Positions 1 to 64,000 of a DNA stretch of 64,000 nucleotides are shown piece by piece. The stretch spans positions 14,625,694-14,689,693 of the forward strand of contig CM119267.1 in NCBI GenBank assembly GCA_051294375.1, given 5' to 3'. The translations under genes were made by a program, and so were the position numbers. Under the pieces are notes generated by a model. It had not been told where the DNA came from and did not search any database. It saw only the letters and a program-made list of their open reading frames with translations. The first letter of the stretch is position 1. The number at the start of each line of letters is the position of its first letter. Origin of the DNA: Paraspadella gotoi (lineage: Eukaryota > Animalia > Chaetognatha).

Positions 1-127
1 CCAATATCACTGGCTTGGAGAGAACTCCGGACGAAAGGAGTAGGAAAGGTCGGTTGGGAAGACGTTGGTCACTCTTTGCTTTAAAAATGAAAAATTCAAA
101 TAACATTCGTCGTGCGTAGATCGTAGA

Positions 128-2094
128 AGACGACATAAAACTGCTAGCCGACTTTCCGCCGTCGCCTCTTCATTCTCATCCTCCGCATCTCGCGAACCTC
201 CGGCGCCCGGTCGAATTTCCACGGCGACGCCTTTAGTCATCGACGTCGCTGGGAGTGACGTGGTCGAAAGATCCGCTACTTCGCTGGTTTGTAATTGACA
301 ATGAACAATTTTTAAATTTTATTATTGACGAGTCGTAAACATCCGTAACTTTACTTTTTAGTCTGGGTGGGAAACTCCGCTTTGGTTCCCTTCGTTCCCC
401 ACGACGAGAATCACCCAACTTTCTCCATCCTTAGTTCCCTCTACGAGTAGCGGAGAAAATTTTGAACACAAGGTTGGTGTTATGGCTTAAAAGCATTGAG
501 GACCAACTCATCAAATTAATAGTATTCTATGGCAACAGTCGGGTTACTTGTGATGCCCAGCTGGGTGGGGCTTCAGGCCCTCTGTGGCGATGCCTGCCAC
601 TGAGGCAATTAGGACTGGATTAGTCGTTAGGACTGGAGATAGAACGCATGGCTCTGATGGTGCACATACTCCCGATGAGCCATAGGGATCGACTGAATGA
701 AGGCTGAGGAGAGGCGGTGGTTATTCCGCAATAATTTTAATAAAATTAATTAGTGAATGTAAGATTTTTATTTCCTCGTCCTCATAACGTATGAGTCCCG
801 AAATAATCCTTATGCTTCTATCTATTTTTTTTTTAGGAGAAGTCGCTACAAAATAACCCTATTACCCTTTCCCATTTTCTATTCCCCTCCCTTTTTTTAC
901 TCCCTTGACAACAATTCATCTCTTCCCTCATCGATCGTCATTCACGCTGATCAGACGGACGCGGAATCCAGCCAATCTCTGTCCGACTGCGAAGTGGTGG
1001 GTTACGTCAAACCATTGTGCGAACGAACGCCGATCGAGGTGACTCTCTCTTCGGACGACATCGAATCGGATCACGACGCGGACGTGAAGCTCGAGTGTCG
1101 CAAGAAGCGGAGCAACTTGCAGAATTTAAAGCGGCGGCGGCGGCGGGGAACATCTCCCGCCGCGGAGAATGGGTTCAGTAGCGACGAACCGATGAGCCAA
1201 CGAGGATGGTCGACCGCGTCGTCGTCGTCGTCGTCGAAGTCCTCCCGCGTCGGAAGACGGCATCTCAGAGAGGAAAGACGGAATCCGAGCGCCCCCGGCT
1301 CAAACTCCTCCGATCTCGGAGGCTCAAGGACCAGCACCGATGAAGTGATCATTGGAGACAGCAGCGACGGAGAGGACGGCGATGTCGTCGTGGAGAACGA
1401 AAAAAGAGGCGACTCGCTGCCGTCGAATCCGGCCCCCTCGTCCGTTATCAAGGCGAAAGTCTGGAGCTTTTTGGAGGCTGCTAGGAAAGAGAGAGAGGAG
1501 GAGGATCGAGCTAAAGCAGGACAGAGAGACTCGCGAACGTGGGACGCCGACCAGGAGGATGATGGCCGGAAAAGTGGCGAGACCACGACAAAGAGAAATG
1601 GATCTCCTAAGCCCAAAGAAAAAGGAAAAGGAAAGGGAAAAGGAAAAGGGAAGGGTAAGAACTCGAAGGAAACTGATCCGACGACGGAATCTCCCGCCAC
1701 ATCAACGACTTCATCGACAACAGCATCCACGTCAGTTATCTCCTCTCAACCGTCTCCAGACCGAAACGAGTCGCGCCCTTCCAAGTCGTCCTCACCGACG
1801 AAACTTAGATCCGTCGTTTTGGCCGTCAATAAGGATGCAGCTATCAATCCCGGCTCTGCGATCGACGAGCGCGACAAAAGCGTCCAAGAATCATTATCTG
1901 CACCGCGGGAACGTAGCGGATCACGCCGTCGGAACAGTGCCACCCGCGACGCCGGCCGGAAGCGCGAACGATCTCATGGAGATAAAGACGAAAGTCGATG
2001 TCGGAAGTCGAAGCGCGAGACAAAGAACGAAGATCGCCGCAGTCGTGATAAAAAGAGCAAGAGACAAACTGTGAAGAGAAAACGGCAACATTAG
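128..2094 (+). CDS. TOPORS: E3 ubiquitin/SUMO ligase Topors-like, 3' part (inferred exons ~128-286 and 955-2094)
   Basis: The motif SDCEVVGYVKPLCERTPIEVTLSSD resembles the conserved Topors IVGFVKPLAERTPELVELSSD, followed by an RS/acidic low-complexity tail. A phase-0 donor at 287 matches a CAG acceptor at 952-954. The RING domain would lie upstream of the window. Confidence 0.75.
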
Positions 2095-3695: not shown

Positions 3696-5130
3696 ATGGC
3701 TGAGACCAATTCCACTCCGGCACCTTCCAAGGACAAATACGAAAACATTACTCCAGGATATAAAGATCGGGAACAACTATATCGTATGATTATTTCCCAA
3801 CTTTTCTATGACGGCTTCACCTCCGTCGCCGTTAACCTATCGAACATGGTCAAGGCTCACCCTAGCTGCCCACCCTCCAACAAGCTCCTCAAAATGGCCG
3901 CCGTTGGAATTCGTGAGGAGATCGAAAAGAAGGAGGCGTCGCTGGCGCCGCCAGTCACTCGCGCTCTCGACCTTGAGTTCGAGACGGACGTTCAGACCAT
4001 CTCGCCAGAAGCCGTTACCTACGAGACTTGCTACGTGACCTCGCACAAAGGCCCTTGTCGCGCGGGCGCGTTCAATCTACAGGGCACGCTGGTGGCAACG
4101 GGTTCCGAGGACTCTTCCATTAAAATCCTCGACATCCACCGAATGCTGACGAAAGCCTCGTTGCCACCGGACCAGAAAGATTCTCAGAAGCAGAGCATGG
4201 AGACTCACCCGGTGATTCGCACTCTATACGACCACAACGCTGAGGTCACCTGCGTCGAGTTTCATCCGACGGCGCAGATCCTCGCCTCCGGCGGCCGCGA
4301 CTACACTCTCAAAATCTTCGATTTTTCCAAGCCCTCCGTCAAAAAGGCGACCAAGTACGTGAATGAAGCCTCGGAACTCCGTTGTCTCGCTTATCATCCT
4401 TCGGGCGATTTCCTCTTGGCCGGCACCAACAACCCAACATTGCGGTTATACGACACGGAGACTTTCCAGTGTTTCGTCAGTCCCCACGCCAATGACCAGC
4501 ACAACGGACCGATCACTGACGTCAAGTTTGCGTTTCATGGCAAGTTCTACGCGACTAGCTCGAAGGACGGGGACCTAAAGCTTTGGGACGGGATATCGAA
4601 TCGGTGCGTCAACACTTTCTCTAAGGCTCATGACGGCGCCGAGGTTTGCTCCATCCAGTTCTCCAACAATGGGAAGTACTTGCTCTCGAGCGGAAAAGAT
4701 TCTCTGGTCAAGTTGTGGGAACTGACGGCCAGTCGATGTCTCATATGTTACACTGGCGCGGGTAAATTTTGTATTCTTCAATGCAAGCTTGGCTTTTTTC
4801 CTTTTTTTTTATTGTCATTATGCATTTTAGTTTTTATCCCCTAAGCGTTTCAGAACTAAACTTAAAATATTCATAGGTGCGACGGGTCCCCAGCTTCATC
4901 GGACCCAAGCCGTATTCAACCACACCGAAGACTTTGTATTCTTTCCCGACGAAAAGACAACCTCCCTCTGCAGTTGGGACGCGCGGAACGCAGAGAGGCA
5001 ACGTCTTCTTTCCTTAGGTCACAACGGCCTCGTCAAGCGTATCGTCCACTCTCCAAACGCCGCCGCTTTTCTCACTTGCTCCGACGACTTCAGGGCAAGG
5101 TTTTGGTGCAGAAAGGTGTCCATAGTGTGA
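3696..5130 (+). CDS. CSTF1: cleavage stimulation factor subunit 1 (CstF-50); exons 3696-4761, 4877-5130
   Basis: N-terminal dimerisation motif [19 protein letters not shown], then [15 protein letters not shown] and WD40 repeats. Exon 2 gives [14 protein letters not shown]...[17 protein letters not shown] at 5136. Confidence 0.95.
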
Positions 5131-5406: not shown

Positions 5407-6693
5407 ATGTTGGCTTCAGCTTTATTGACGATTTCCTTCCTCGTTGTCGGCGTCTCTACCTCCCAACCGGGAATCGTTCGCCACATTTCCTTTTCTTTAA
5501 ACCCCGAGTGCCATTTGCCCGCTTGCACGCATCCCAACGAGACCGACGCCGTCAACCTCGTGGTCGCGCGTTCCGTCGGTCCCAGAGACTCTGTTCTCGC
5601 CCTATGGAGTTCGGTGGGTGCCCCCGCGGTGTTGATGGCTCGCTGCGCTAACGAAACGAAAGTCAGCATCGACTGGAACTCATTTCTCAATTCCTCGCTG
5701 GATCCTTTTAAAAATTCCACGATAGAGTTTTCGCCCGAGCCTTTGACGGTTTTTGGGGTTTTGCTGCGACGGCTGGTTGAGTACGATGACGTAGACGATC
5801 AAGCCGATCCAGAATATTACGTCAAGAAAAACAAAACGATTGGAACGCGAGAATACCGACTGGATCAGATACAGTGGTCGCCGGTTTCTTTGGACAACGA
5901 CTCGTTAGAATTTCGCACGTCCAACCTTAGCAGCTTGGGGGCGTCCTTGGTGTTAAAGATTTCGTTGAGTGGGACTCTGACCCGTGGTGCTAAGCTCCCC
6001 CATCTGCAAATAACTCCTAACAATTCGCTTATTGACGTTATCTTGGACAAGAAGCCCCCAAGCTACAACCATTCAAGGTTTTACGTCGAGCTCGTCGCCG
6101 TTAACTCTCGACGTCCCATGGCTTTTGGTTCGTCGAGTTCCATCGACGACGAATACACCCCCGGCGTTTTCACTTCGTACCGATTGTCTTCTCACGCCGC
6201 CGACGATGATAACGTTTATGTCGAGTGGAAGCCAGTTGCCTACACAAGCGAGTCGAGGAACCTCGACCACCTGACCTCCGCCAAGGCTTTCGGCGACGCC
6301 TACGTCGACCCTGATATTCGCGAGGTTCGCAGCGTCGTAGGCGAACTCTTTCGCGAATGGACATTCAATCGCACCATCAAGGTATCTTTCGGAATCAGTC
6401 AAGATAAGTTTTACAATAACACCGGCTACAGCGTTTGGTGCCTCGTTATGGGATTTGGCGCGACGCCGGAAGACGCCATCTCCACACTCGTTATCGTGGT
6501 CATCTCCTTCGGTCTTGGGATACCCTTTGCGGTTCTGATCGGCAGCGGCGCCTACGCCGGGCTCAGGGAGAAGGGAAAGTCAAGGAAGAGGAAGAGCACG
6601 ACGGCATCCAGCGGAGTGAGGGCGCCCTTGGTTGAAAATGAGCAGGAGGCGACCGGGACGGGATCGCGGGATTATGGGACGGTAAACACTTAA
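5407..6693 (+). CDS. GLMP: glycosylated lysosomal membrane protein (NCU-G1 family), intronless
   Basis: Signal peptide, many N-glycosylation sequons, SIDDEYTPGVF and WKPVAY family motifs, a C-terminal TM helix and a YGTV tyrosine sorting motif. Confidence 0.9.
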   Translation: MLASALLTISFLVVGVSTSQPGIVRHISFSLNPECHLPACTHPNETDAVNLVVARSVGPRDSVLALWSSVGAPAVLMARCANETKVSIDWNSFLNSSLDPFKNSTIEFSPEPLTVFGVLLRRLVEYDDVDDQADPEYYVKKNKTIGTREYRLDQIQWSPVSLDNDSLEFRTSNLSSLGASLVLKISLSGTLTRGAKLPHLQITPNNSLIDVILDKKPPSYNHSRFYVELVAVNSRRPMAFGSSSSIDDEYTPGVFTSYRLSSHAADDDNVYVEWKPVAYTSESRNLDHLTSAKAFGDAYVDPDIREVRSVVGELFREWTFNRTIKVSFGISQDKFYNNTGYSVWCLVMGFGATPEDAISTLVIVVISFGLGIPFAVLIGSGAYAGLREKGKSRKRKSTTASSGVRAPLVENEQEATGTGSRDYGTVNT

Positions 6694-7144
6694 TCGTTAT
6701 GCCTGTTGTTCCCATTTCTTTCCAGTAGTATGCCTATTCTTTATTTCCGGGATAGGAATTGTTGAATTATTTATTTTTTGATTGTATTTTGGTGTTTGCT
6801 GATTCATTTTTGATTTTTCACTTTGGTGAATATCTGGTTGTTTTTTTTAACTTTCGTGACCTTTATTTGAGGGGCCCGTGACAGCCACTCTGTGCTTACA
6901 ATTAACAAGTTGACGAGAATTTTATATTTCCACGTTGGTTGACTTTACTGTAATCGTGTTGAAATTAAATTTCGAGAGCCAAAGACGAAAAACATTTTTT
7001 AACATTAACATGTATTTGTTTTTATATTTCAAAACTAATTGCTGAATGTTCTTTTGACACAATAATAAAGATTAAAGAATCTTCTCAAAGCGTAAAATGT
7101 TAATTTTAATTTGGTGATATTGCTACACTTTTTATAGAAAAGAA

Positions 7145-9610
7145 ATGAATAAACTCAACCCGGAAACGATAAAACTTATAACGAGCACTCAAGTTGTCAC
7201 CACCGTCGCGACCGTCGTCAAGGAATTGGTTGAAAACTCTTTGGACGCTGGCGCTGCTTCAGTTGACGTCCTCCTCGCGAACGTCGGGCTCGATCGAATC
7301 GAGGTTCGCGATGATGGAGCCGGCATCGCCAGAAAAGATACGCCGTTTATGTGCGTCAAGCACTACACGTCCAAAATATCATCCGATGAAGATCTGGTTC
7401 GTCTCGAAACCTTTGGGTTTCGTGGCGAGGCGTTATCGTCTCTATGTGCATGCGCTGATGTGATAATCACGACACGGACCGAGGACGACTCCACCGCCGT
7501 TTGTTACACGCTCTCTCGCGACGGAAGCATCCGCAACTTTAAACCCTCGGCCGGTGGACGTGGCACCACCGTGGTGGCGACCAAGCTTTACGCTGATATT
7601 CCTGTCCGAAGACAAATGTACAGCGAGGAAAAAAAGAAGCGGCAGAGCGTCAAAGAAGTGGAACAACTCATGACTTTTTTCGGATTGGTGCATCCAGGAG
7701 TCCGATTCAGCCTGAAAAATGACAGGAGTCAAATTTATTTAAAGAATAAATCCGTCGACGTTCAGGAGGCGATAGCTACGTCTTTGGGCGCTGCTGTATC
7801 GTCGTCGGGATTGAAAGTTATCGATCGAAAACTGGAAAATGACGCTAAAATTTCGATAGTTATATCATCACCCGATACTCGTCATGAGAAGACGTCAAAA
7901 AAACCAGAGGTTAAAACTTTCGTTTCCGTTAATAAAAGGCTGGTAATTATTAAAGAAATCGAGAAAATGGCCCGAAAATTCTTCGCGGAGAATGGTTTGA
8001 ACCACAGCTTCAAGACGGCGGTTTGCTTCGTGGCTCTCACTCTGTCCCCGACGGATTTTGATGTGAACCTTACTCCTAACAAGTGGGAAGTGATGATCGA
8101 GAATGCGAAGACGATCTTAGAGGCAGTTGATGAGGCGATATCTTCTGCCGCCCAAAACTACGAAACGCACGTCAAAGGTAAAGGGACGGGAAGTGCGGAC
8201 GAATCCATAGAAGGCGACTATTTTGCTCGAGTGACCAAAGAATCCGAAAATTTGCTCGACAAAGAAAACGCTGGAGATATAAACGTAAGTCCCGGGTCGG
8301 GTTATTCGCAGTCGCCAATGACCTGGTCGAAAGGGATCTCTCTGAAAGGACTCGACGATACAAACCCTGAACCCGTTTCGATCTTTACTGTCAATAAATC
8401 CGCAGTTGATTTTAGCCTCGAGAAATCCACCAGGGTTCCTCCTTTAATTCGTTCCCGCGACTCTTCGATGTCCGCCGCACAAAAAACTTTATTCGAATCG
8501 TTTTCTTCTGACAAAGATGGTGCATGTTTGACTAAGGATCGCGACCATCCCGGTTATCGCGAGTTTTCGGTGTCTGTCAGGCCCAGGATCATTAAAGAAA
8601 ATTCTGGCAAGACTTTTCCCCTCATCAACGACGCCGTCGACGCCGAGTGGGGTAGGTTAAGTGACGATGAAAAGCGGGACTTTGCCGAACGAGCTGGCGC
8701 AAAATCACGGCCATCCGTTGGAATTTCGCCCAACTTTAAACGAAGTATTGACGGCGAGTTCCTGCGTAAACGAAAGTCCTCCATTCCCAACGATTCAAGA
8801 GAGTTGATGAAGGATTTCGTCGCTAAACGACGCAGGGTAGTATTTCCCGCTGTTCGTGTCGTCGAAGTGGACTTTTCGTGGAACGAACTCGCACAAAGAG
8901 CGACGAAGCCCTCCGGTTCTAACCCTTCGGTCAAAGAGGATATCGTCGTTTTTGGCAGTGTTCTCGTCGAGAACGAAAAAGCTTGGATTTGTTCGTCTTC
9001 CCTCGATCCCTCAACAATGTACGCGCTGAATTCATGTCGTCTGTCAGAGCGTAACATATTCAAACGCAGGATGGAGGACTTCATAGTGCCCTTCGAGTCG
9101 TCCATTCCTCGCCAGATCCCACGCTCCGTGGCCCATTCGATCGCCGGACGCATCGCCGATAAACCCGTCCGCGTTTTAGACGTTTTAGCCGATTTGGCTC
9201 GATCTTCCAACGAAAGCGAATTTGCCCGCGGCGGCGGAGTGACTTTGAATAACGAACGACTCGTCAAAAACGGATTCAAAGTCGTCGTTCGACGCCGCTC
9301 ACCGAAAGATCCTGTCGAGGCTCAGCTCCATTCCGTCTCCACTCTAGTCGACGACGAAGACTTCTTGCACGTAATGGGGTCGTTGACCCGTCAGTTGCCT
9401 CTACCAGAGACTCGGTCTCCCAAAGTGGAGGCATTCCTGCGAAGAGAAAGTATGATGGCCGCCGTTAACGAGCCCCCTTTCGTCGATCGTCGGGCTGTCG
9501 TCCGGGCGTTGGCCGGCCTTTCTATACAAGATGGATTCCTAAATATTAAGTGCCTTCACGAACGACGCGTTTTTGAGCCGATAAATTCTTTAAAAAAAAT
9601 TATTTGTTAA
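7145..9610 (+). CDS. PMS1: MutL-family mismatch repair protein PMS1 (with HMG box), intronless
   Basis: GHKL ATPase motifs VKELVENSLDAGA, DDGAGI and TFGFRGEALSS; DVNLTPNK; HMG-like segment VRPRIIKENSG...WGRLSDDEK; C-terminal CLHER. Confidence 0.9.
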   Translation: MNKLNPETIKLITSTQVVTTVATVVKELVENSLDAGAASVDVLLANVGLDRIEVRDDGAGIARKDTPFMCVKHYTSKISSDEDLVRLETFGFRGEALSSLCACADVIITTRTEDDSTAVCYTLSRDGSIRNFKPSAGGRGTTVVATKLYADIPVRRQMYSEEKKKRQSVKEVEQLMTFFGLVHPGVRFSLKNDRSQIYLKNKSVDVQEAIATSLGAAVSSSGLKVIDRKLENDAKISIVISSPDTRHEKTSKKPEVKTFVSVNKRLVIIKEIEKMARKFFAENGLNHSFKTAVCFVALTLSPTDFDVNLTPNKWEVMIENAKTILEAVDEAISSAAQNYETHVKGKGTGSADESIEGDYFARVTKESENLLDKENAGDINVSPGSGYSQSPMTWSKGISLKGLDDTNPEPVSIFTVNKSAVDFSLEKSTRVPPLIRSRDSSMSAAQKTLFESFSSDKDGACLTKDRDHPGYREFSVSVRPRIIKENSGKTFPLINDAVDAEWGRLSDDEKRDFAERAGAKSRPSVGISPNFKRSIDGEFLRKRKSSIPNDSRELMKDFVAKRRRVVFPAVRVVEVDFSWNELAQRATKPSGSNPSVKEDIVVFGSVLVENEKAWICSSSLDPSTMYALNSCRLSERNIFKRRMEDFIVPFESSIPRQIPRSVAHSIAGRIADKPVRVLDVLADLARSSNESEFARGGGVTLNNERLVKNGFKVVVRRRSPKDPVEAQLHSVSTLVDDEDFLHVMGSLTRQLPLPETRSPKVEAFLRRESMMAAVNEPPFVDRRAVVRALAGLSIQDGFLNIKCLHERRVFEPINSLKKIIC

Positions 9611-9688: not shown

Positions 9689-10783
9689 ATGCTTAAAGGC
9701 AAGAAATACGATTACAAAGACTCGAACCTAGCCCTCTTTGGCTCCGATCTAGAAAGAAATGTGAAGGAGGCTTCGGCCGAATCTGAAGAGGCTTGGGAAG
9801 GCTCTGGCGATGGGCCTGGCCTCGAGATTTGGCGTATCGTCAATTTTCAAGTGGTGCCTTGGCCCAAGGATCAGTACGGCGAATTTTACATGGGCGACTC
9901 GTACATTGTGCTCAACACTTACCAAGAGGAAGATTCCGAGGAGCTCAAATACGATGCGCATTTCTGGATCGGGAAGCACTCGACGCAGGACGAGTACGGC
10001 ACGGCCGCCTACAAGACAGTCGAACTAGACACTTACCACAAGGACAAGCCTATCCAGCATCGCGAGATCCAAGGTCACGAGTCCGATCTCTTTAAATCCT
10101 ACTTTCAAACGATCGAGTACCTCGCCGGCGGCGCCGATTCTGGCTTCCGTCACGTAGTGCCTGAAGAGTATCAGCCCCGCCTGTTGCGAGTCAAGGGCGG
10201 CCGGGATCACGTCGAGGTTACGCAGATTCCTAAGGCCAAGGCTTGGGTCAAGCCGGAGGACATTTACATTCTCGATCTTGGACGAAAGCTGATTCAGAAT
10301 AATCGCCATGGATGCAACCTTCAAGAAAAGAGCCGCGCTATGCAATTTCTTCAAGAGCTGAAGGGCAAGCGTAGCCATGAGGAGATGGAGAGCTCCGTCT
10401 GCGACGAGGGCGATGACGACGAATTCTGGGAGGCCTTTGGCGAGGACGAAGACGCCGACGATGATGCCGACGACGACGACGCCCCTTTCGAGGAAGGAGA
10501 CAAAGAGCTGTTTCGTCTTAAAGAAGACTCTACTTTCGAGAAGATCGCGGAGGGAGATGACGTCAACAAATCTCTCTTGCAAACCGAAGACGTTTTCATT
10601 CTCGACGTGAAGTCCCAGTGTTTCGTCTGGATCGGGAAAGCTGCGAGTGAGGAGGAACAGAAGAGAGGAATGGAATTGGCTCACAATTATCTTATGGAGA
10701 CGGACCACTTCCAGACCCCGGCGACTTGCATATTGGAGGGCAAAGAAAACGCCTCCTTCAACGCCTTAATTGAGGCCTGTTAA
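9689..10783 (+). CDS. three-domain gelsolin/severin-like actin modulator
   Basis: KKYDYKDSNLALFGSDLE, GLEIWRIVNF, FYMGDSYIVL, STQDEYGTAAYKTVELD and DVFILD gelsolin motifs. First ATG at 9689. Confidence 0.92.
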   Translation: MLKGKKYDYKDSNLALFGSDLERNVKEASAESEEAWEGSGDGPGLEIWRIVNFQVVPWPKDQYGEFYMGDSYIVLNTYQEEDSEELKYDAHFWIGKHSTQDEYGTAAYKTVELDTYHKDKPIQHREIQGHESDLFKSYFQTIEYLAGGADSGFRHVVPEEYQPRLLRVKGGRDHVEVTQIPKAKAWVKPEDIYILDLGRKLIQNNRHGCNLQEKSRAMQFLQELKGKRSHEEMESSVCDEGDDDEFWEAFGEDEDADDDADDDDAPFEEGDKELFRLKEDSTFEKIAEGDDVNKSLLQTEDVFILDVKSQCFVWIGKAASEEEQKRGMELAHNYLMETDHFQTPATCILEGKENASFNALIEAC

Positions 10784-11440
10784 ACAGGAGGGGGAATCCC
10801 AAACATTGACTTGTAACTTGAGTCGATGGAATCAAACAACTCTTTTTGACACTTTTCGTTTTGATATTTCTTATTCTTTTCGCTTTATCATTCTACAAAA
10901 TAAAGCTTTTTATTTTAATTATAATACATTTTTTAATAAATTTTTTTTATAACATTCCGCCTTTGCTGCCTTAGTGTTTGGGTGATATTTTCAATAGCTT
11001 TTTCCTGGCTTATATTTTACGCAGTTATGCACACACGGCTTAATTTTTTTCTTGTTATGGTTTGATCATGTTGAGTGTTTTTTCTAAATGTATTGGAGCT
11101 TAGTAAAAAGTAATACCATGATGTTCCGGAGAAGTATCTTCATTAAATATTATGAGAAAATCTATCGAACTAGATTTCTTCTTCTAATACACACACAATC
11201 TATGTATAAAAGTTTACTCAAGTTTAATTTCACTTTTTATAATAAAACATTAGGATAAGTAAATTAATGAATATCAGTATCAATAGTATAAATCCGAGAG
11301 TTTCAATTTAAATAAGAAGACGTTACTGAGCTCCATTGGTGTCTGGTGTCAATTTCACACATCCTTTTATGTTTTTTATTTACTATATACTTTTACGTAC
11401 TTAAAATTATTAAGTCTAGTCTTTCTTCAGATCTACGAAA

Positions 11441-34196: not shown

Positions 34197-34233
<37 letters not shown>

Positions 34234-41945: not shown

Positions 41946-42009
41946 TTATTCATTTCATTTCGTTTTATTGATTCATTGGATTTTTTAAACGTTTTCCCAT
42001 AATTGATTT

Positions 42010-43114: not shown

Positions 43115-43211
43115 CATAACCTTCCCTCGAAAAACATTGTTTTACGTTAAGTTTAACGCATTTCTACGTATTTCTTATCAATCAGCAGGTTGTTTATTTT
43201 GATTTCACGTA

Positions 43212-43577
43212 ATGAGTTGGTTTGGTCGAAGGATGTTAAGCCCGCTGTCGGGGCGCCTGCTCACACAGCGGAAAATCCACGAGAACTCAACCACGGCGTC
43301 CGGCCACCAAGTGAGCGTGGTTTATTGCGGCGCCTGAGGATACCAAAGTCGTTTCGACGCGCTGCATGGTCAACTTCGTGAGGTTTTTCCCGACCTTTTC
43401 GAAGGGTCCGCGGCCATCGAAGTTACCGGCTCAAAATCGCTCGACAAATCTGGCGCCTTCGAAGTCTCCGTCGATGGGAAGTTAGTCCACTCCAAGTTGA
43501 ACGGCGACGGCTACGTCGATAACGAAGAGAAGCTCGACCGGATTGTAGAGGCCATCGAAGAACTGGGACTGCAATGA
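43212..43577 (+). CDS. SELENOW: selenoprotein W (Rdx family, CxxU), in-frame TGA at 43335-43337 read as Sec
   Basis: Reading through TGA gives 121 aa: ...VSVVYCGAUGYQSRF...SGAFEVSVDGKLVHSKLNGDGYVDNEEKLDRIVEAI, a close match to SelW motifs. A SECIS follows. Confidence 0.93.
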
Positions 43578-43592
43578 GAGACCCTCTTAATG

Positions 43593-50643: not shown

Positions 50644-50870
50644 CGTTTTTTAAACTTTGACATTTTATGCTTAAAATGGTTAATTTTGCTTCATTAATTT
50701 ATACGGAATTGTTTTTTTTACTAGTCATAATCAACTTAGAAACAATCAAGTCAACATTTTTAACATGCCAATAAGTCTATAAGGCAAACCAAAAAATAAA
50801 AAGTAAAAAGAAAACAAAAACAAAAAACCAAACAAAAAAATAAACAAGGTCTAAAAAATCTATACTAATC

Positions 50871-53800
50871 ATGGCGGATTACTTGAACTCTTCGGTTCAG
50901 AATGACATGGCTTCACTGTTGCCCAACGGACTCATCTCAGACGAGGATTGGATCACGACGACAACAATGAACCACCGTGTTCCGGAGTTCGTTCCATCGT
51001 CATTTTCCCCTGCCCATAATGCTTCCCATAACTCTATCCACACTTCTGCCCAGGGTGCCGTCCACAATCCTGTCCACAATGCAGGTGTCAATGCCGACCC
51101 GGTATTTTCTTCGGCAATGATGGGAATGAACGACATGATGAACGGTTTCCAGGGCATGTCGTTGGACGGTAACATGGGTGGTGGAATGCATTCGCACGTA
51201 GGCGCTGGGAGTATGGACGGTTCAATGGTTCACATGGCGAATCATCATATGGGAGGGCACTTGGGTACTCATATGGGTGGCCAGATGGGCATTCAGATGG
51301 GGAACCAAATGGGTGCTCATCATATGGGTGGACAAATGGGTAGCCACATAGGCAGTCAAATGGGTAGCCACATGGGCAGTCAAATGGGAAGCCACATGGG
51401 CGGGCAGATGAATAGTCAGATGAGCGGGCAGATGAATACCCAGCTGGGCGGGCAGATTGGGGCTCAAATGGGTGGTCAAATGGGTTCACAATTGAATCAA
51501 CCAACATCTGTAGCCGCCCCCGTCTCCAACAACTACATGGAAGTAAACACCATTATGGCTGATGGTGGACACAAATACGGGGTGACGTCACTCGCCTTCG
51601 ACCATTTTGAGGAGTTACTTTGGATGGGAAACGGGGGCGGCCACGTCACGTCATACTTTGGCGCGGGCCTACAAAAGTACACGTCTTTTCAAATTGCCTC
51701 CACGGCGGAGGAGATACTTCACATCCTGCCGACAGACAACAGCGTGTTGGCGTTGACTCGGGACAGTCTTATCGCCCGGCAACGTACTGGCATGCCAATT
51801 TATGTTTTTAAAAGCGAGCATTTGACCCAAGCGCAATCAATGTTGCAGATGGATCCTACGGTACCCAATGTGATCATTTCCGGTCAACAGCCGAACATAG
51901 TTGAACTCGATTTTACCACAAAACAAGAAATTCGGGCGATCCGCCTCGACGACGAAAACGGTCGCGTTGTTCTTCGTCGCTCTCAAAAGTATCTGATGGC
52001 TGGGGACGCGAGCGGCCGCGTGACGATGCACGACCCGAGAACCTTACGGCAGGAGCACGTCATCGATGTGCATTCTGGAGCTCTATCGGATTTGGACGTG
52101 CATGGCACAACGCTTGCCACGGTGGGCTTTTCCACTCGCGGCCCATCTGGTACTCTTTTTGGTGAAAGGTTCATAAAGGTCTACGACATTCGATTCATGC
52201 GCAGTACTTCGCCCATTCAAATACATATAGCCCCATTGTTTCTTCGTTGTCTGCCGCTTTTCTCTGCCGCCAACTTTCTCGTACTGTCACAGCACGGTCA
52301 GTTTCAGATAGTCGAGCCCTCGGGTCTCGCCGGCTCCTTCCAAGTCAGCAACGCCGGTACCATCGGCATGTCTATGATGTGTCTCGACGTTTCCAGTAAC
52401 TACTCGTGTTTAGCCATGGGCGATTCCATGGGGCTGGTTCATCTGTTCACTAATTCCGGCAACATGATAGATCCAACCCCCTTTAATGTTTATTCGCGGC
52501 CGACTACTTTTGCGGACCCAATGGAAACTTATCCGCCAATTCCGTTTACCGACATTATGTCTCCACTATCCATGATTCCCAATCCCATTACAAATGGCAA
52601 ACTGGTCTCTGATTGGCCCTCTTTTACCACCAAAAAGGTGTATCGCGTCCCAGAACCTACTCATCCAGAATTGATGGAAAACATGAAGATGGTTCAAGGA
52701 ATAGGTTATGCTGCTCGCCCACCATGGATGAGACGGAACATGAACATGCATCAGCCTCGAAACGGAGAAGTTGTTCCCAGAAAGGGCGGAGCTCGACCAA
52801 ACCATTCCACCAGCATCTCCCCACAGGAACGTTCTAGTCCCTACGCATCAAGCGCCAGCGGAAGTCAGATCGTTACTATCCCCAAGAAGTATCAAAAAGT
52901 TGAATTAAAGTATTCCAAGATTGGCCTAGAAGACTTCGACTTTCGATTGTATAACCGCACTTCTTTCGCTGGTTTGGAAACGGACATTCCTAATTCTTAC
53001 TGCAACTCCATGTTGCAAGTTCTTTTCTATCTGGAACCGCTCCGATGTTACCTTTTGCAGCACCTGTGCAATCGCGAATTCTGTCTATCTTGCGAGTTAA
53101 GCTTTCTGTTTCATATGTTGGATAACACTAAAGGCAATACCTGCCAGGCCACCAACTTTCTCCGAGCTTTTCGTACTATTCCAGAGGCTTCAGCACTTAG
53201 CCTAATCTTAGCCGATGCTGACGAAGAGACAGGAAAAGCCAATCTTCCTGGTCTAATTCAATCGTGGAACCGATTTATTCTTCAACAGATCTACTCTGAA
53301 ACTACGACGCCTCCTCCGGCGCCTCCGCCAGTAGCTGACGCAGAGTATCCTTTTAGAATGCCTGAAATTAAAGAAAGTTCCCCAGAGGTTCGGTCTGACC
53401 ACGACGTTGTGAACGATATCTCCCGCTTGTTTTCAATGAGAACTATTAACATCTTCACCTGTCGCGAAGGGTGTCGCGTTACCAAAGAGACGTCGACCAT
53501 GGTGACATCTCTTTCTTATCCCGACTGTTATCCGGACGGAGAAAGCGCTCCTCCTAAGCAAATCCCTTTCATCGAAGTCGTGAAGCACAGCCTAGATTAC
53601 ACCCACCACGTCACGGCATTTTGCGAAAAATGCAGCAAATATATGTCTACAACGCAGCAGAGAAAACCCATTACTATTCCAGATAACCTGACTCTTAATT
53701 GTCAAGTGGTTACCGGGAAAGACCTGCAGTTTTGGAAAGCACAAATTGAGCTTCTCAATGGACCGGAAGAGGAGAACGAAGCGGAGAAATATGTGACCGA

Positions 53801-55864
53801 CCCAAATGTCCCCGCTTGTCGATTCGGCGCTCGATGCAAAAGGGGCGACTGTAGGTGAGATTTTAAAGTGTATACGTTAATATGAAAGTCTCATTCAAAT
53901 TTTAATTGAAACAGCGGAGAAGTAAGTTGTAGTGAATATTTTTCATACTTGTGTAATCACGTGACGACATAGGAATGCAGTCATTTGATCGGAGAGGCAA
54001 TGCGTCTTATTCCCTTTTAATTCAAATGAAAGTCTCTGGATCAAAAATTTTATTTAAGATATATTACATACTATATATTTATAGTAATTTGCCTATAAAA
54101 TTGTCAATTTTCCAAATGGCTTGTTCGATATCTTCGGTTATGTTAACAAAATTTTATCATTTACTTATAGAAAGCCATCAAAATAAATCACTCAATCTTT
54201 TTATCTCTAAGTGATAAACCATAAGAGGCTTGTTGTGTATAGAGGACAAGAGACTTGTATTCTCGTGATCATCTGGAAAGATAATCTCTGCGGCAGAACT
54301 CCTTAAACTTTTCGGTTCTTGTTTTAAAGGTATCGTCACGACACTGGGCCCGACAGATCATCGGGAGAATCTAAACCGAAAGTCGCTTACATTCCCACCG
54401 AGTTTAAGATCCGTATCCACCCACGCACGAAGGAATTGCAGATCAAGCCGCTCTCGCCTGCGGACAGCAAAATCGAGGCTGCCGAAGATCGAGAAGAAAT
54501 AATTAAGGATGCAGAGCGCGGAGGCGGCGGTGACAACGGCGATGACACCGATTTCGCCCCTTGGCCGCAGGGCGGCGGATGGCAAGTCTATCAATTGGGC
54601 GGCAACATCATGCACATCCACGAGAACAGTCCGTTAAAACCCGGTGGAAGTCTCGTCGCCCATATCTTTGTCGGGGAAAAAGCTCACAAACGCAAAGAGG
54701 GCATCACCTCGACCCAGTGGTACGTCTTCAACGACTTCTCCATCGAGCCCATCGAAGAGCACGAGGGCCGCGTCGTCGATCTCAACTTCATGACGCCCAC
54801 CTGCATCTTTTATCGACGAAAGAACATGGAGAAGTCTTACGATCTGCAGCCAAACTACGAATCCATTATCACCTCTGACGTGCTCACGGAGACCGGCATC
54901 ACTTCGGCTCCCTATCTCCAGAAGCGACGCCTTCACGTCACTTTCACGCCGCTGGGGCCCGAAGAGGTTGTGTCCCCTGGTTATCTCGTCGGCCTCGATG
55001 CCGAATTCGTCACCCTGAATCAGGAAGAGTCGGAGATCCGGTCGGACGGGACGCGTTCCACGCTCAAACCGTCACAGATGACTTGCGCGCGTATCACTTG
55101 CATCCGGGGCCAAGGACCGTTGGAGGGAGTGCCGTTCATCGACGACTATATTTCTACTCAGGAGCAAGTAAGAATAGGAATCAAAATGGCGCTTTAATTT
55201 AAAAGTTTTTAGGTATAAAAGTTGCCTTTTACCTCTCAAGGATTAATTTGTCTTTTACGCGTTGCAACCATTGCATTGCAAAAACAACATTTATTAAAAA
55301 AAGAATCAATAATGACATTGTCTTCCGTTACGTTCGAAGGTCGTTGATTACCTGACGGAGTTTTCCGGCATCAAACCTGGTGATCTCGACGCGAATATCT
55401 CTTGCAAGCACTTGACTACATTGAAGTCGAGTTACCTCAAGCTGCGTTACCTTATCTCTCGCGGCGTAACTTTCGTTGGCCATGGGTTAAAGAAGGACTT
55501 TCGCGTGATCAACCTTGTTGTTCCTAAAAAGCAAGTCTTCGACACGGTCACCCTTTTCCATCTGCCCAAACAGAGGATGATTTCGTTGAAGTTTTTGGCC
55601 TGGTATTTGTTAGCAACTAACATCCAAGAAGACACTCACGATTCCATCGAAGACGCCAGGTTACTGCCGTATAGGGTTAGGCTTGTTTTTTTTTATTTTA
55701 ACGCAAAATTTGTATTTTTCTTTTCTGTTTTCAGAACCGCTTTAAAGTTGTACCGAAAGTACAAGGCGCTGAGCGAAGATCAGATCGGGTTCCAAGACGT
55801 TCTTAAAAATCTGTATGAAGAAGGAAGGAAATATGGCTGGAAAGTGCCATCTGCCCACCAGTAA
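50871..55864 (+). CDS. PAN2: PAN2 poly(A) deadenylase catalytic subunit; exons 50871-53854, 54330-55167, 55340-55659, 55735-55864
   Basis: WD40 ([16 protein letters not shown]), [20 protein letters not shown] pseudo-UCH and DEDD nuclease motifs ([28 protein letters not shown]). Confidence 0.95.
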
Positions 55865-56144: not shown

Positions 56145-59100
56145 ATGAAGGTGTTGAGCTCCACTATTGACGAGGACGACCATGGCGGCGATGCCGACAA
56201 AGAAAATCAACGAACGTTGAAGAAGCCTTTCCACAGTTCGTCCGACGACTCGCTTCAACGTTGCTTGCCGCACGCGTTGACCGCCACTGCGTCAGACCAT
56301 CTTCAGGGGCCGCCCGGTTTCTCACCGCCAGAGCGAGCACAACCTCGAGATATAGATTCACGCCTTCACGATGTCGAACCCTTGCTGGCCGCGTCGCCCA
56401 ACATTCTTAACAAAGGCTCCTGTGGAAGAAATCGTGTACAAAAAGGAGTCGGAAATCCTCCTGCCGTGGGGGCCTTGTACCGAATTTCCTACACGTCTCC
56501 TCAACCAAGAAACGGGTGAAAGAAGATAACGTTGGAGGAAGCGGATGGCGACCATAATTTCTAGATTGCTACTTTTCATCCAGGTTTTCTTCGTCTGGAA
56601 ATGCCACTCCGAATTCGGAGACCTCGGGTTCTGACTTACATCCTAAAGATAAAATTAACAACAGATTACTTGCCGATTCTGTAACAACCTTGGAGACGAA
56701 AAAGGAAGTGTGAGTTGCTCATCGTTTTTCATCGATATTGGTCGTGTAGGAATTCCCTGCTATTTTTTTTTTTTTTTTCAGAAACGAACTCGGCGACAAA
56801 AAAATCAGTTCATCCTTGCACTCAAGACTTGAACCGGTTAGTTCCAGCAGCAGCTTGGAAGCTACTGGTCAAAGCTTCATGAGTCCTTTACCCGGTAAAT
56901 TCCCAAGAGAGGATCACTAAGAGGATACTAAGAGAGGATCACTACGAATTGCTCGTTAAATTTTACTACTTTTGTCAGGACGGAAATCGAACAGTTATCG
57001 ACTTACCCCTTGCACGCCGCGAACGAATCCCTTCGATGTGTGTGACCCTTCGGAGCTGACGATGTCGATCGTCAGCCCTTCGGTATTTTGTATCTCCAAA
57101 GAACGTTCGAAAAACGGTAACCGTAGCTAAATAATTTAACAATTCAAAAACATATTCTATAATATATTCTAGCATGATGGGAAAAAAATTGTCGCGGTTT
57201 AAAAAAAGTTGTTAAATATATTTTTTACAAGTAAATAGGTTTTAATATATAGCAAAACCTTCTTAGGACAGAATATAAATATACATTTTCATAAGCATAA
57301 AATTATGAAGGTCAGGGATCACTCAATTCAAATTATAAATAGGCTACAACCGAAAGGAGAGCTCTTGACGATTCCGAAAATGTATTCACTTTACTATTTT
57401 TTCAAAGGCGTTTCAAATTTTGTATTACTATATAAATCTATCTGAAGAGTTGCAGCCCAAACGGTAAAGCGGTTCCTCATGAAATTTGACTTTAATTACT
57501 TTTAGGTCACGTACTCCAATTCTATGAAATATTTTCAAAATTTGCCCTCCTTTATAGAAAATTTGGTTATTTTAGTCATATTTGGCATTAATTTTGTATA
57601 AATTTAAAAGTTTTCGATTTTTTTTAATAGAAGACCCTCTACAGGATATAAGAGAAGAATTAGGATACAGTAAATTGAGATTTCCACAATTTTAGGTTGC
57701 GTGATCCCAAGACAGGTTGTCTTTAACTTTTTGAACTTCTTTTAGAACACGGAGACAACTTGCATTATTGTTATTATTGTATCTTTAACAAAATATTTTA
57801 TCAGATTTGAGATGGGGAATGGTCCTTGGCAAAAAGTACAATGTACAATATGATAATGCATTGTCTTTCATCTTTTATAAAATCTTTGATTTTTTTTTGG
57901 TTTGTTTTATATTTGATACTGATACTTTATTACATCCAGAGGTAAATATGTGCAAATATTAATTTTGCTTACAGAAAGGTTACCCAGAGCTTTATGACTT
58001 TTATTGATGCTTTGAAAAATAAATAAGTTTCAGCAAACAATGTCGGATCTGCTTACGATAATTAAGCGATAATCAGCTAATCAAATGATAAATCACAATA
58101 TGTTTGTGATCCTAACTGATTATAAGGGATTGTACCATACCATACCACACAAGTGTCTGTGCCAATACATGTAAATTCAACATTTTTGACCAATTTAATG
58201 AAAGAATTTTTGAAAAAGAATTATACTTTCTTATATCAACTTTTTGCAAGGAATCCAAATCCAATCTTAAAATTTAAAATCTTAAAATTTAAAAAAAATT
58301 ATTTTGAAATTTGAGCTATTATATACTTATTACTATATAAAAATATAGTTTACTGGCACCCACTATTGTATAAAATTAAAAAATAAATTTACCAAAGTAT
58401 TTTTATTGGTTTTTGTTTTCATGTTCTATTTGCTAAATTTTAATTTCATAAAATTTTATTATTTTCACATCACTCTAATATTGTACCAATTTCATAAAAT
58501 TCAGCTCCTTGTATTTTGATGCTAGTGCGGAGTACAATAAGTATTCCCCGATCTAATACTTAAGGGAGTGGTCTTTTCATACAATTGAAACATTCTTTGA
58601 CATATTTTCCACTTCATTGATAGGGAAGCCAGGTACTTTGGGAGTGAATAAACGGGACTGTGAGAGAGTCTTGATTGAAAGCTTGCAGGGACCTGCTATG
58701 TCATTATCTTGTAAGAGTGATGGAGGCCTTAAACCACCAAAGCCTGTCCAAAGTCAGGGGCAAGATAGCTTATTTATTAAATGAATGGATAATTTTTATA
58801 TTGGTTGTACCAATTTCATACAGTATCAGTGTAATTCAATGTATTATTAATGCTACTCTTTTTTGACATATGAATTAAGATTCATCCCTGAATCTATCTT
58901 AATAGAGATGATGAAATAACCATTTGACAAAGGCAGTCCCCGTAAATCATACCGGTTAAAGTCAAAAAGCCATAAAAACGAGTTGGAATTGAGTATGTAA
59001 TACAAATATAGAAAAATATATAAAAATAAAGAAGGAAACATTTTTTTGACAACTGATTTTCTTTTGCATAGTACTCTTTTTTTTTTTTTTTTTGTACATA

Positions 59101-62100
59101 AATGGAAACACAGCTCATATGAATCACCAATGGCCAAAGTTTTTCGATATCTAAATTTTAGTTACATTCTTACAGTGCCAAAAAAATAGCTGAAAACTTG
59201 CCACGACAATTTTTTTTCCTTCATGGTATAACATTTTTCATCAATACAATAAAATATCTTCTTTTCAGGTTCTCACACCGAACGCGATCCGTCGGAAACG
59301 ACAAACTCAGCCCAAGTCGGAGATTCTCCAGACCATTTAAAGCCTTTTAGATGGTCAATTGATCAACTGGCCATCCTTTACCCTGCCGACATCGATATCA
59401 CCGACAAGGAAGTCAGCCGACAGGAGATACATAAAACTCCCGACATCGAATACGAGAGAAAGGTAAGAAAACAATTTGATTTACGTTTACAGTTTAACCT
59501 CATGGTCGCTGTAGTCTAAATTGGTTTTTCACGATTTATGAAATTGGTACAACCAATATAAAAATTATCCATTCATTTAATATATTAGCTTGCCCTTGAC
59601 TTTGGACAGGCTTCGGTGATTTAAAGCCTCCATCACTCTTACAAGATAATGACACAGCTTTCAATAAAGACTCTCTCACAGTCTCGTTTATTCACTCCCA
59701 TAGTACCTGGCTTCCCTATCAATGAAATAGTATAATGTTTCATTATATAATTTTTTTTTTCAAAAATAAATAAATCTAGGTCGACGCCGCCATCGATGAA
59801 TATTTTAGTCAAAACCTTATCGTACCCTCTCCTTGGATCGGTCAATCCGGTGCCAAGTATCAGTCTCGGTTGCCGAACATCATGGAATGCAATGGGTCAC
59901 CTATGCTTTGCGTTAACCACGCCTCTAGCGTCCTCGAAATTCCTCAGACGGACGCCAACGCGTCCGCCATGAACGTCACTACTTCTAACGCCAGGTTTAA
60001 TTCGTTTTTGTCGATCGGAGAGATCATTGTTGCTATCAAGTTTTAGATAATCTTTTTATTTTTTAATCGCGTTTAGATTAAATAAATCCGCCAACACCTC
60101 TACTCAAGTAAACGTTCGCGAAGTCTCTTGTCAAACAAAACTTACAATTCCCGTAGACGTTGATCTAGAGAGATTGTTGGCCGACTATTACTCTGCCACC
60201 GAGGAGGTCGTCATAATCCAATCGAATGATTCTAGGTGCGTATGATTTAGTTTTTTTTTTTATCTCGTTTAGAATTGCTTCTTTGTGTCGTCGTCGTCTC
60301 GCTTTTTTACAATTAGAAATTGTAAAAGTAGGTAACCATTAAAAGCTAAAAATTTGGATATAGCTTCTCATCATCAAGATCTTTTATAACATGTTTCATA
60401 TTGCTATACGCATTTGTTTTATTTATAAAACAATTTTTATATAAAAACTACTACAAATTATAATTACGTTTTATTTATATTAGGGGTAGCCCCACACAAT
60501 GGGGTGAGTCAAAAATTTAGAATGAGTACCTGCTCAAACAAAAATTTATGAAAATTTGCAAATTACTTGTTTCACTATTTTCTATTTTTATATTTTATGA
60601 AGGATTTAGTATTTAATCTTATTATTTAATCAAATATATATTGCTTTCTTTCTTAAAAATGTTTTATTTATCTAATAATTCAATTTGGGAAGGGGAAGTC
60701 AGTGTTGTCTTCTGGAAATAGAGGGAGCATCTATACAACACAAGGTTAGATTACTATCTGTCCTAGTTTTCTAATAGATATTACACATCATTTCTGTTAG
60801 AAAGTCATTAATGAAAAATCATAATATCTAAGAGGCTGAACAGAAAGGGGTGGGAATGGATAATTTTTTGAGGGGTGATCAAAGTTATATATGATTTTTT
60901 TTACTAATAGGGATAAGACTACCATGTAGAATTGTATGTTCTGATAGGGATGCATACCGGGGAAAGGTCTATAGGGGCACCTTTATGTCATGAATATAAT
61001 TTTAAAATTATATTTTTTCTTTATTCTACTTTTTAAATTATTTCTTTTTTGAATATTTTTTATTTTTATACAATGGGAAGGTCATCAGTTGGGAACCTAT
61101 ACCCTTCATGGATTTCGGCTCTTTAATCCCAATATCCAGGTATAGGCGAGCCATCACCAAATGGTGATCCTTCATTGTTGCTTATATTTTAAATGTATAT
61201 CTTGAATGTTTATCTATATTTTTATGTATACTTTCAATGAACAAAAATTTTTTAATATGGCTCTATACCCAAATAATTAATTTTTTAACATTTATTTATA
61301 GATAGGAAAGGCTAAAATTATATAAAATTCTATTTCTTGTTTAACTTTTTTAAAAAATTTGAAGATTTCAAAAAAAAATTTATAATGTGAAAAAAGATAG
61401 ATAACATTTAATGTAAAAAAGATAGATAACATTTAATGTAAATTTTTTTGGAAAATGATTGCTCAAATATTTAATCAAGACAACTAAAAAAACTTTGCTA
61501 ATAGTCGAAATTAAAATTATCTCCCGAGTTTTTTTCTTTTTTTTTCTGAAAAGAAAACAGAGCAAACAAATAATTGCGGGAATGGTTCAAAAATATCTTA
61601 TGTTAACAATAAACGTGAACGAAAAAGGAAAATAAAAAGAAAAAGAGATCGGGAGACAAAGTTGGTCCCTAATTATATGCTCTGCTTAAAACTGCAGAAA
61701 AAACGTGTGCCAGATAGCGCCCTAAATTATGCTAAAAATGTCTAGAGTTTTTTTTAGTATGCTAAATATTGTGCCAAATTATCTTTTAGCTAATTTAATG
61801 CAAAACTGTTACAAGAGTACAGAAAAATGATTATTATTAGAGCCTATTAAAAATTATTTAGACAGATAAAAACAAAAAAAGACGAAAAAAATGAGAGTTT
61901 GTGAATTGATTAATGCTTAAGCGATGAGCCATATAACCAGTCAAGTCCTGTAAAAGGTGTTTTGCAGCAGTAATTTTAAAACAGACCAACCAACCGACGC
62001 CATAGTATTTTGCTCTTGTAAAGTTGCTTTAACATGCTATTAGGATTACAGAACTACACAAGCATCTCAGAGGAAAATCGGGAATTAACATGATTGTTAT

Positions 62101-64000
62101 CAAAGAAATAAATAATAAAATAAGCAAATAGCATATTTAATACAGATTTACATTTCCAAAGGATAGAAAAACCTTAAATTTTTTCAGAATATGCCAGATT
62201 GTATGCTATACAGAAGGCTTCATATTATAAAATGTGGTACCCCTTTTTTGTGACCAGAACTCGTTCCGAGAAAACTACTGGACCAAATTTATTGAAATTT
62301 GGAATGAACGATCCCTATGTGAATACTGATAAAACTATCAATGGGAATTTCAATATTTGACCGCTTAGCCGAGAAATGGGGGCCCCCCGGGGGGTCACCC
62401 ATGGGGGCAAACAATTTTTTTTATAATTTTTGTTTTGAACAGTTGCACAGACATTTACTCTTCCACAAAAACATATTTATTACCTCAAAAATATTCATTT
62501 ACCTTAATTTTTAGCTTTATGAACATCAGCAGTAAAAGTCAGATTTGGAATAATTTGGGAAAATTGGAAGTAAAAGGATGAACCATGCATCTTCAACCAT
62601 GCTTAATTATTGCAAATTTATCAATTTTAGTTCTAAAATGTCTTTTTCTTATGTTTAAAACGTCAATGCACCTGATGCCATTAAAAACTTTGAAAAATGA
62701 AAAAAAAAAATTTAGCCCTTTTTGGCCCCCCAGGGGTCCACCCCCAGGGCCCTGTATCTCTTGTCAGGGGTTGAATATCAAAATTAGCCTCGATAGTTCC
62801 ATTTATATAGTCAGCACTCTTAAATAATGTAAAATTTTATTAAATTCGATAGGGTAGTTTGGTGGGAACAGATTCTGGTCACAAAAAAGGGGTACCACAT
62901 TTTATAATATGAAGCCTTCTGTATGCCTGATCATTTTTTTACTGGCTCAACGGTCTGAAATTATACCAGATCTATGAGATTACTATACTTTTAAGATTTT
63001 TTTTTTTTGTTAATTGAATCGTTATTTTATTTTGAAACAAAATATTTTTTTAAAAATTACTTCAGAATCTACTCATGAAAGTAAATAAGTCCAGTTAGGT
63101 CAAAAAAAGGTTAGTTAAGGCAAACAAAGGCTAGTTTTAGCAAGAAAAGGCACGTTAGGGCGATGAAAGGAATGTTAAGGTATGTTGAAAGGTAAGTTAA
63201 GTCAAAGACAAGAAAATGGCAGAAAGATATTGGACATAGTGTTTTAGTTTAGTTTTAGTTTCAACCATAGCCCTTTCTTTTTGCGTTGTGTGAGGAATTA
63301 GGAAATGGCGACAATTTTTGAGTTTCAACAACGAATTTACTTTGATAATAAAACGGACATGTTTCGGTTTGACTTCAAGCCTTCATCGGCGTTTAAGTTT
63401 ACTGTTAAACCAAGCCAAAACTTGTCCGTTTTGTTGTCAAAATAAATTCGTTGTTAAAATTTAAATATTTTTTCTATTTCCTAGGTAAAAAAAAATATTT
63501 CGGATTTCTGTTCTCTTTTATATTTATAGATATTATTTTTTTTCTCTGCTGATTATTTTGTTTCAAATACCACGCCAGCTTTACCTCTCGCAACACGAGT
63601 TTGACCAACGACTGCTCTGGCGGCGCTCCGATTTCCAGCGATGTTCTCAGCACCTCTACTCTTAGGCGAAAGCTCTTTACACATTTGGAGGAGGAAGAGG
63701 AAAAGCGTCTTGGAGAAACTGCCACTTCTGGCGGCGAAAAAGAGGGAGCAAAAATTAGTCAAGTCCGACGGTCACGTTCAGGGTCAAATTTGAAAGTCGG
63801 GGTTAGTCCAGTTGAGCCCAATTTGATACTATAGATAAATACTGTAGCTTCTCTTTGTTGTCAAGGCGCTCTTTCACGACCCGGCCGTCTCCGGTCAGAC
63901 ACCTCCAAAGGCGATATCAATCGAGGGTGACGAGGCGACCACGCCCTCCTGTCTTCAGTATGTCGCTACGAGCCCGATTCGTGAGTCTGCCAAGACTCGC
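56145..64000 (+). CDS. BORA: Aurora A activator Bora, incomplete at the 3' end; exons 56145-56515, 56584-56709, 56782-56894, 56978-57116, 59269-59462, 59780-59994, 60077-60235, 63579-63801, 63866->64000
   Basis: Spliced frame gives NPFD...SPSVF, FRWSIDQLAILYPADID, AIDEYFSQNLIVPSPW, CQTKLTIPVDVDLERLLADYY, LSTSTLRRKLF and TSPI, all Bora motifs. Exon phases are consistent. Confidence 0.88.
57172..59226. mobile_element. second (inverted) copy of the 25601-26990 TIR element, with nested repeats
   Basis: Ends CATGATGGGAAAAAAATTGTCGCG and CGACAATTTTTTTTCCTTCATGG, plus shared internal blocks. Confidence 0.6.
62211..62921. mobile_element. young MITE with perfect 49-bp TIRs and TA target duplication, in a BORA intron
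   Basis: CAGAAGGCTTCATATTATAAAATGTGGTACCCCTTTTTTGTGACCAGAA at 62211 and its exact reverse complement ending at 62921, with TA on both flanks. Confidence 0.92.
63351..63394 (-). ncRNA. minimal type I hammerhead ribozyme motif (Penelope-type) within an inverted repeat
   Basis: Minus strand reads AAACG-CCGATGA-A-GGCTTG-AAGT-CAAACC-GAAA-CATGTC-CGTTT. Stem I is perfect, with one core substitution (CCGAUGA). Inverted repeat arms at 63327-63371 and 63411-63455. Confidence 0.65.

Follow-up and report, generated by a model that had tools for sequence, protein, structure and literature searches.

Twenty-two co-oriented, operon-like genes in a 64-kb stretch of the genome of the arrow worm Paraspadella gotoi

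The window analysed here is a 64,000 nt stretch of contig CM119267.1 from the arrow worm (chaetognath) Paraspadella gotoi, and all coordinates given are positions within it. The window contains 22 gene models, every one of which is on the + strand. These are unrelated genes, mostly of housekeeping function, arranged head to tail, and both ends of the run lie beyond the window. Library matches support 18 of the 22 models, 16 through Pfam, CSTF1 through homologues, and a PALB2-like gene through three relatives. On the plus strand, 77 of the 130 frames of at least 65 aa were submitted to the Pfam search, those overlapping a longer open reading frame (ORF) being omitted. No Pfam family was found among all 111 minus strand frames of at least 70 aa (E ≤ 0.01). 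Two short minus strand candidates, at 40,334–40,456 and 61,083–61,175, have no Pfam match and the first overlaps the end of a repeat. A preliminary description of this DNA had stated that its genes are unrelated and all on the + strand, and this is sustained by the 22 models and the empty minus strand search. Apart from one in-frame TGA, in a SelW-type gene, no model has an interrupted frame, and each of the 24 introns modelled has GT-AG ends. A codon model applied to 19 left-out coding stretches recovered the annotated + frame of 18, and it also favoured the + frame of all five weakly supported ORFs, these being the TOPORS-like exon, orfA, orfB, orfC, and the PALB2-like gene.

At the start of the window is the 3' exon of an upstream gene (934..2094), which has an open frame, scores best on the + strand in the codon model, and has no Pfam match. 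We take it to be TOPORS-like from a motif; no search supports the name. CSTF1 (3696..5130) has two exons, separated by an intron at 4762–4876, and is followed by three intronless genes: GLMP, also called NCU-G1 (5407..6693; PF15065), a PMS1-type MutL homologue (7145..9610; Pfam and TIGR00585), and a gelsolin-like protein (9689..10783; Pfam and homologues). MRPL38 (11441..13737), of three exons, keeps the name it was first given, since it matches mL38 in the PDB (E 1e-12). The pyrimidine 5'-nucleotidase NT5C3 (13939..15824; PF05822) has two exons. The next ORF, orfA, is an intronless orphan of 305 aa (17162..18079) with a codon score of 41.6 in the + frame. No homologue was found among 2,208 candidates and it has no Pfam match; it is possibly a lineage-specific gene. 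Legumain (18464..22561; PF01650 and PF20985) has five exons and an MFS transporter (23261..25155; PF07690), presumably SLC37-like, has four.

Within the 2.2-kb gap that follows, within-window matches identify repeat pieces at 25518..27033 that are common to the introns of BORA and to intron 1 of legumain. The 139-aa orphan orfB (27379..27798) is the weakest of the models, with a codon score of 8.8 in the + frame and no Pfam match. Beside it, orfC (27959..28948) is an open frame encoding a low-complexity orphan of 329 aa, the best of its six frames with a low score. Then come an intronless ankyrin-repeat gene (29930..32851; Pfam), RPAIN (33018..35480; three exons; PF14766 and PF14768), and a PARN-type CAF1 ribonuclease (35738..37512; two exons; PF04857), which has a second in-frame ATG at 35756. 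The intronless gene at 37600..40188 encodes a coiled-coil and WD40 protein that was initially named PALB2. Its three relatives uphold a WD40 gene, while the identity as PALB2 is weak: one relative matches PALB2_WD40 at E 0.0046, below the cut-off, and the match to PALB2 in the PDB has an E of 0.032, ranking behind generic WD40 chains.

The longest gap, of 3,023 bp (40189..43211), contains repeat pieces identified by within-window matches, and a degenerate tandem array with a 22-nt period at 41995–42192. It is followed by the SelW-type selenoprotein gene (43212..43577; PF10262 and TIGR02174), in which the in-frame TGA is at 43335. Directly 3' of its stop, in the region 43212–43660, is a SECIS-like hairpin with a folding z of -0.17 and no Rfam match at the gathering score. 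This hairpin sits in the 239-bp spacer that also serves the 5' end of the next gene, a GNAT acetyltransferase of five exons (43817..45022; Pfam) that is presumably NAA80-like. An intronless PR/SET and C2H2 zinc-finger gene (45105..48044; Pfam), PEX19 (49399..50643; four exons; PF04614), and PAN2 (50871..55864; four exons; PF20770, PF13423, and PF00929) precede the 5' part of BORA (56145..64000; PF15280 in two exons). The PAN2 N-terminus has about 200 aa of M/G/Q/H-rich repeats. BORA has repeat-rich introns and exon limits that are only partly modelled.

Half of the 20 complete genes are intronless, including ORFs of 800–980 aa (PMS1-type, ankyrin, PR/SET, and PALB2-like). The 24 introns in these 20 genes correspond to 0.77 per kb of coding sequence, and 17 of the 24 are 65–172 nt long. 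The one run holds three genes of mRNA 3'-end formation and deadenylation (CSTF1, PARN-type, and PAN2) and three related to DNA repair (PMS1-type, RPAIN, and PALB2-like). In a quick, unfinished tree without gnathiferans, CSTF1 shares a long branch with the sequence P0001 at an open fork within the spiralians, and its named relatives are at 63% or less. There are 22 members in the cluster of P0001, and a metagenome scan with P0001 returned 22 loci, none of them a close relative (47–78% in pieces). The CSTF1 relative P0129 shares the intron position of the window, and P0121 appears to end at an intron position that is absent from the CSTF1 of the window. The gelsolin tree, from which gnathiferans are likewise absent, has an 18-row clade with three paralogue-like subclades. 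These fit lineage-wide gene duplicates and are not unique to chaetognaths. MERC, a marine plankton catalogue, is one of the sources of the sequences related to gelsolin.

The median gap from stop codon to ATG (n = 21) is 280 bp, with 11 gaps of 300 bp or less, 13 of 500 bp or less, and five greater than 1 kb. All ten of the gaps listed in the preliminary description (78, 82, 87, 166, 201, 227, 239, 275, 276, and 280 bp) were reproduced. The G+C content is 51% in coding islands and 28–29% in spacers and introns. The short spacers are also intron-like in their T-A skew, at 0.175 compared with 0.149 in introns. Donor-like sites are rare in them: in 10 of 11 the best score does not exceed 1.1, real donors scoring at least 2.9 in 21 of 24 when assessed in-sample. 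Most ATGs had been said to have an acceptor just upstream. By eye this is so, yet it is barely above chance in such T-rich DNA: acceptor-like AGs precede 3 to 18 of the 21 ATGs over nine settings (p 0.008–0.36 against spacer controls), and a plain YAG is within 60 nt of 15 of 21 ATGs, compared with 67% in controls. The spacer between PEX19 and PAN2 (50644..50870) is 47% A and, unlike other short spacers, lacks any acceptor-like AG in the 120 nt before the PAN2 ATG. The upstream regions share no motif beyond T tracts and only 2 of the 21 have TATA-like boxes; housekeeping genes are often TATA-less. A bacterial promoter scan of the window gave results at chance level, from a model that is irrelevant to animal DNA. 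Within the window, the search for a spliced leader (SL) RNA gene gave no Rfam match and no leader-like match.

Comparison with RNA was made for the region 3,300–14,800, which includes 5 of the 21 junctions, using one sequencing run (X1) from one study. This run contains 0.92 of the words of 3,600–12,800; the matches of two other runs, X2 and X3, were all of low complexity. The X1 contigs are of spliced RNA, since three GT..AG joints agree with modelled introns and there is no depth in two short introns. The CSTF1 intron and both introns of MRPL38 are spliced. Three of the five gene junctions are bridged by single contigs, these being CSTF1 with GLMP, PMS1 with gelsolin, and MRPL38 with exon 1 of NT5C3. 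The first and last of these are spliced. The contig that joins CSTF1 and GLMP extends 5' of the CSTF1 ATG by 396 nt or more, into a gap of 1.6 kb, and it stops at 7,127, 10 nt before the AG of the PMS1 acceptor (7136..7137).

The PMS1 contig is of 4,007 letters; 3,998 of them are aligned, beginning at 7,138, directly after this AG. No cis joint is listed there, and the nine unaligned 5' letters are leader-like in their position and length. Chaetognath leaders are described as 36 nt long and ending in A, with SL2 and SL3.1/3.2 sharing a 9-nt 3' end (PMC2481426, Table 3). Such a shared end would stay unaligned at the PMS1 acceptor, and the nine letters are a hint, though only that, of a leader stub. 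The contig of MRPL38 starts at its acceptor-like AG (11429..11430). The two AGs had both been singled out in the preliminary description, where RNA 5' ends carrying a leader were expected; loose letters are present at the first and lacking at the second. Upstream of the MRPL38 contig, 11,136–11,428 has no X1 cover, from which nothing is inferred.

In each of the five gaps greater than 1 kb there is a repeat piece that also occurs in the BORA introns. Within-window repeat matches cover 3–31% of each of these gaps, which as a self-comparison of the window is a lower bound. The suggestion that these gaps are filled by transposable elements is thus upheld as to the presence of repeats and not as to their coverage. 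The observed/expected ratio of CpG is 0.56 in the repeat-rich BORA introns (57200–63480), 1.27 in coding DNA, and 1.28 in the long intergenic gaps. CpG is kept in genes and lost in repeat-rich introns, a pattern that is not unique to chaetognaths and that matches the transposon-only methylation reported for P. gotoi. Non-autonomous inverted-repeat elements are present at 58613–59726, 19279–19460, 25518–27033, 29816–29852, and 62208–62924. Two inverted copies flank one BORA exon and relatives are found in intron 1 of legumain and in two intergenic gaps. A repeat in intron 2 of MRPL38 (12866–12931 and 13340–13459) is matched by X1 contigs with a summed depth of up to about 7,500.

Operons resolved by SL trans-splicing have been published in chaetognaths. 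In the RPS14-PCNA operon of Spadella cephaloptera there are 3 nt between the poly(A) site and the acceptor, and further clustered, co-oriented genes were noted in 2008 as possible operons (PMC2481426). Nearly half of the genes of P. gotoi are reported to be trans-spliced and 18% to be in operons, called at gaps of less than 250 bp, giving 2,151 candidates with 5,061 genes, a mean size of 2.35 genes, and a longest operon of nine (PMC12460157). Trans-spliced genes in this species have few open-chromatin regions, those outside of operons resembling those within (PMC12460157). For one chaetognath, a chromosome-level assembly, full-length transcripts, and ATAC (assay for transposase-accessible chromatin) data are reported to be public (PMC12460157). 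A Spadella bacterial artificial chromosome (BAC), 35A21, has all 14 of its oriented non-transposon rows on the + strand, from 0.1 to 120 kb, and its four minus rows are all transposon proteins (PMC2481426, Table S5). This count omits a tyrosine recombinase row, four + rows with transposon labels, and one unoriented row; a single gene may account for two of the 14, the table has a misprint in one start coordinate, and it is of predictions with a SwissProt match only. The one-way layout of this BAC persists across seven gaps greater than 1 kb (p about 0.008).

In the available text of PMC2481426 and PMC12460157 no measurement of strand runs was found, and the word "strand" is absent from the main text and three searched supplements of the latter, the gene table of which may show such runs. 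In a literature search that did not extend to subscription papers, long unidirectional clusters were found only for kinetoplastids, diplonemids, and dinoflagellates. The mechanism is therefore known in this phylum, and what was not found in print is the extent of the co-orientation.

Operon-like, leader-resolved transcription is probable for the genes of the window, on the basis of the spacers, the bridging of three of the five junctions, the loose end at PMS1, and what has been published for the phylum (PMC2481426 and PMC12460157). The reading that is preferred here, with a probability of about 0.5, is that the 22 genes are a few long polycistronic units, resolved by a leader, the spacers of which have been widened by repeats. 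RNA polymerase II would read through several genes. The leader would be trans-spliced at an AG shortly before each ATG, and the upstream mRNA would be cleaved and polyadenylated close to the next acceptor. The gaps greater than 1 kb would mostly have started as shorter spacers, expanded by the repeats that also lengthen the introns. If repeats enter spacers as they do introns, then units are longer than those found with a 250-bp rule. Some of the long gaps probably have internal promoters, and the gap at 40189..43211 is the best candidate for a unit boundary. SL-resolved operons had been proposed from the outset, and the spacers, bridging contigs, and PMS1 end favour them; one single unit of 64 kb is considered doubtful. 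As such operons were already published in chaetognaths, the mechanism is less unexpected than was then held.

Several observations weigh against this reading. The long gaps, little covered by repeats and not depleted in CpG, could hold promoters. The window was picked for its co-orientation, and the five long gaps all being tandem gives a p of only 0.03. The acceptor enrichment before ATGs is marginal, and PAN2 and orfA are without a good acceptor. The contig of MRPL38 has its first position at 11,429, within the acceptor AG, and has no loose letters, which is not accounted for by a leader whose last letter is A. Among the 15 of 62 loose ends that were listed, none is at any acceptor, and three contigs run unbroken through the acceptors of GLMP, gelsolin, and NT5C3. 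A two-gene contig does not prove a single transcript, contigs cannot show true starts, and X1 is a single run.

The orientation itself has a probability of 2^-17 for 18 genes and 2^-21 for 22 genes under random orientation. These values assume independence, which is absent within operons, and they therefore overstate the surprise. Grouping the genes into blocks reduces this. A 1-kb cut-off gives six blocks (of 1, 6, 3, 6, 3, and 3 genes), all in one direction (p 0.03), and a 300-bp cut-off gives 11 blocks of 1–4 genes, again all in one direction (p 0.001). The latter are of the size range published for P. gotoi, and it could be that these are ordinary chaetognath-type operons of 1–4 genes, each with its own promoter, whose common orientation is chance or history noticed through the choice of window. 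The CpG content of the long gaps, most of which is not shown to be repeat, would suit such promoters. That 11 blocks should all share a direction is difficult to reconcile with this, as is the similar layout of the Spadella BAC across its long gaps, and this explanation is considered rather improbable. An account without any trans-splicing is very unlikely. Here the genome would be compact and each gene would have its own promoter, with untranslated regions (UTRs) that overlap or abut and become fused in assemblies. Overlapping UTRs would also yield bridging contigs, and the acceptor enrichment is marginal. Against this, a 3' UTR and a promoter would hardly both fit into the gaps of 78–87 bp (3 of 21), and the nine unaligned letters at the PMS1 acceptor have no listed cis joint. 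Compact monocistronic genomes also usually mix orientations and favour head-to-head pairs.

At the other extreme, the window may be part of one constitutive polycistronic unit greater than 64 kb, in a genome where many of the housekeeping genes are in one-way blocks bounded by strand switches, as in the directional clusters of kinetoplastids. In kinetoplastids such clusters generally run to tens or hundreds of genes on one strand before it switches, with nearly no cis introns, a leader on every mRNA, and no known gene-specific promoters. The absence of a strand switch in 22 genes, and in 14 oriented host genes over 120 kb of a second species, is in keeping with this. So too is the RNA contig reaching into the 1.6-kb gap upstream of CSTF1, as are the few open-chromatin regions of trans-spliced genes in P. 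gotoi, within operons and outside of them (PMC12460157). The published share of genes in operons would give about 0.06 runs of 22 genes per genome, on the assumption that pairs are independent, which is not the case. The kinetoplastid-like scale that had been claimed is borne out for co-orientation, with its parallel in Spadella. The 24 cis introns differ from a kinetoplastid-like organisation, and this explanation is doubtful, if less so than the other two.

A broader proposal is offered tentatively and is considered unlikely. A large part of the arrow-worm housekeeping genome may consist of one-way polycistronic blocks, each 50–150 kb long and holding tens of genes. Such blocks would be an animal counterpart of the kinetoplastid clusters, missed so far through the 250-bp gap rule and transposon-widened spacers. 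Animal operons in print have 2–9 genes, and the run of 22, if transcribed as units, exceeds the nine reported as the maximum for arrow worms. In an animal whose cis introns and development are normal, units of 20 genes or more would mean that housekeeping transcription is largely constitutive and its control post-transcriptional. The gap rule for counting operons would then undercount them. Such units would also provide a test of why trans-splicing spreads and of the limits that it sets on inversions where a genome rearranges fast.

The kinetoplastid clusters resemble the proposed reading of the window in having unrelated genes on one strand and leader trans-splicing coupled to polyadenylation. 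They differ from it in that the window has 24 GT-AG introns in its 20 complete genes, three of them seen spliced in RNA, and leader addition in chaetognaths is limited to about half of the genes. The operons of tunicates and nematodes (Ciona, Oikopleura, and Caenorhabditis) are, like the units preferred here, polycistrons resolved by a leader with short intercistronic distances (PMC7986045). The spacing is about 1 bp in Ciona, whose operons have at most six or seven genes, about 30–60 bp in Oikopleura, and about 110 bp in C. briggsae, which has a special SL2 leader. One-way runs of 20 genes are not described for them in the portion of PMC7986045 available. The SL operons of chaetognaths likewise consist of unrelated housekeeping genes, head to tail, with spacers below about 250 bp. 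In both cases the upstream RNA ends near the next acceptor, 10 nt before the PMS1 AG in the window contig and 3 nt in the Spadella operon, and BAC 35A21 shares the one-way layout over 120 kb. The difference is one of extent: published chaetognath operons have gaps of less than 250 bp, a mean of 2.35 genes, and a maximum of nine, whereas the window has 22 co-oriented genes with gaps of up to 3 kb.

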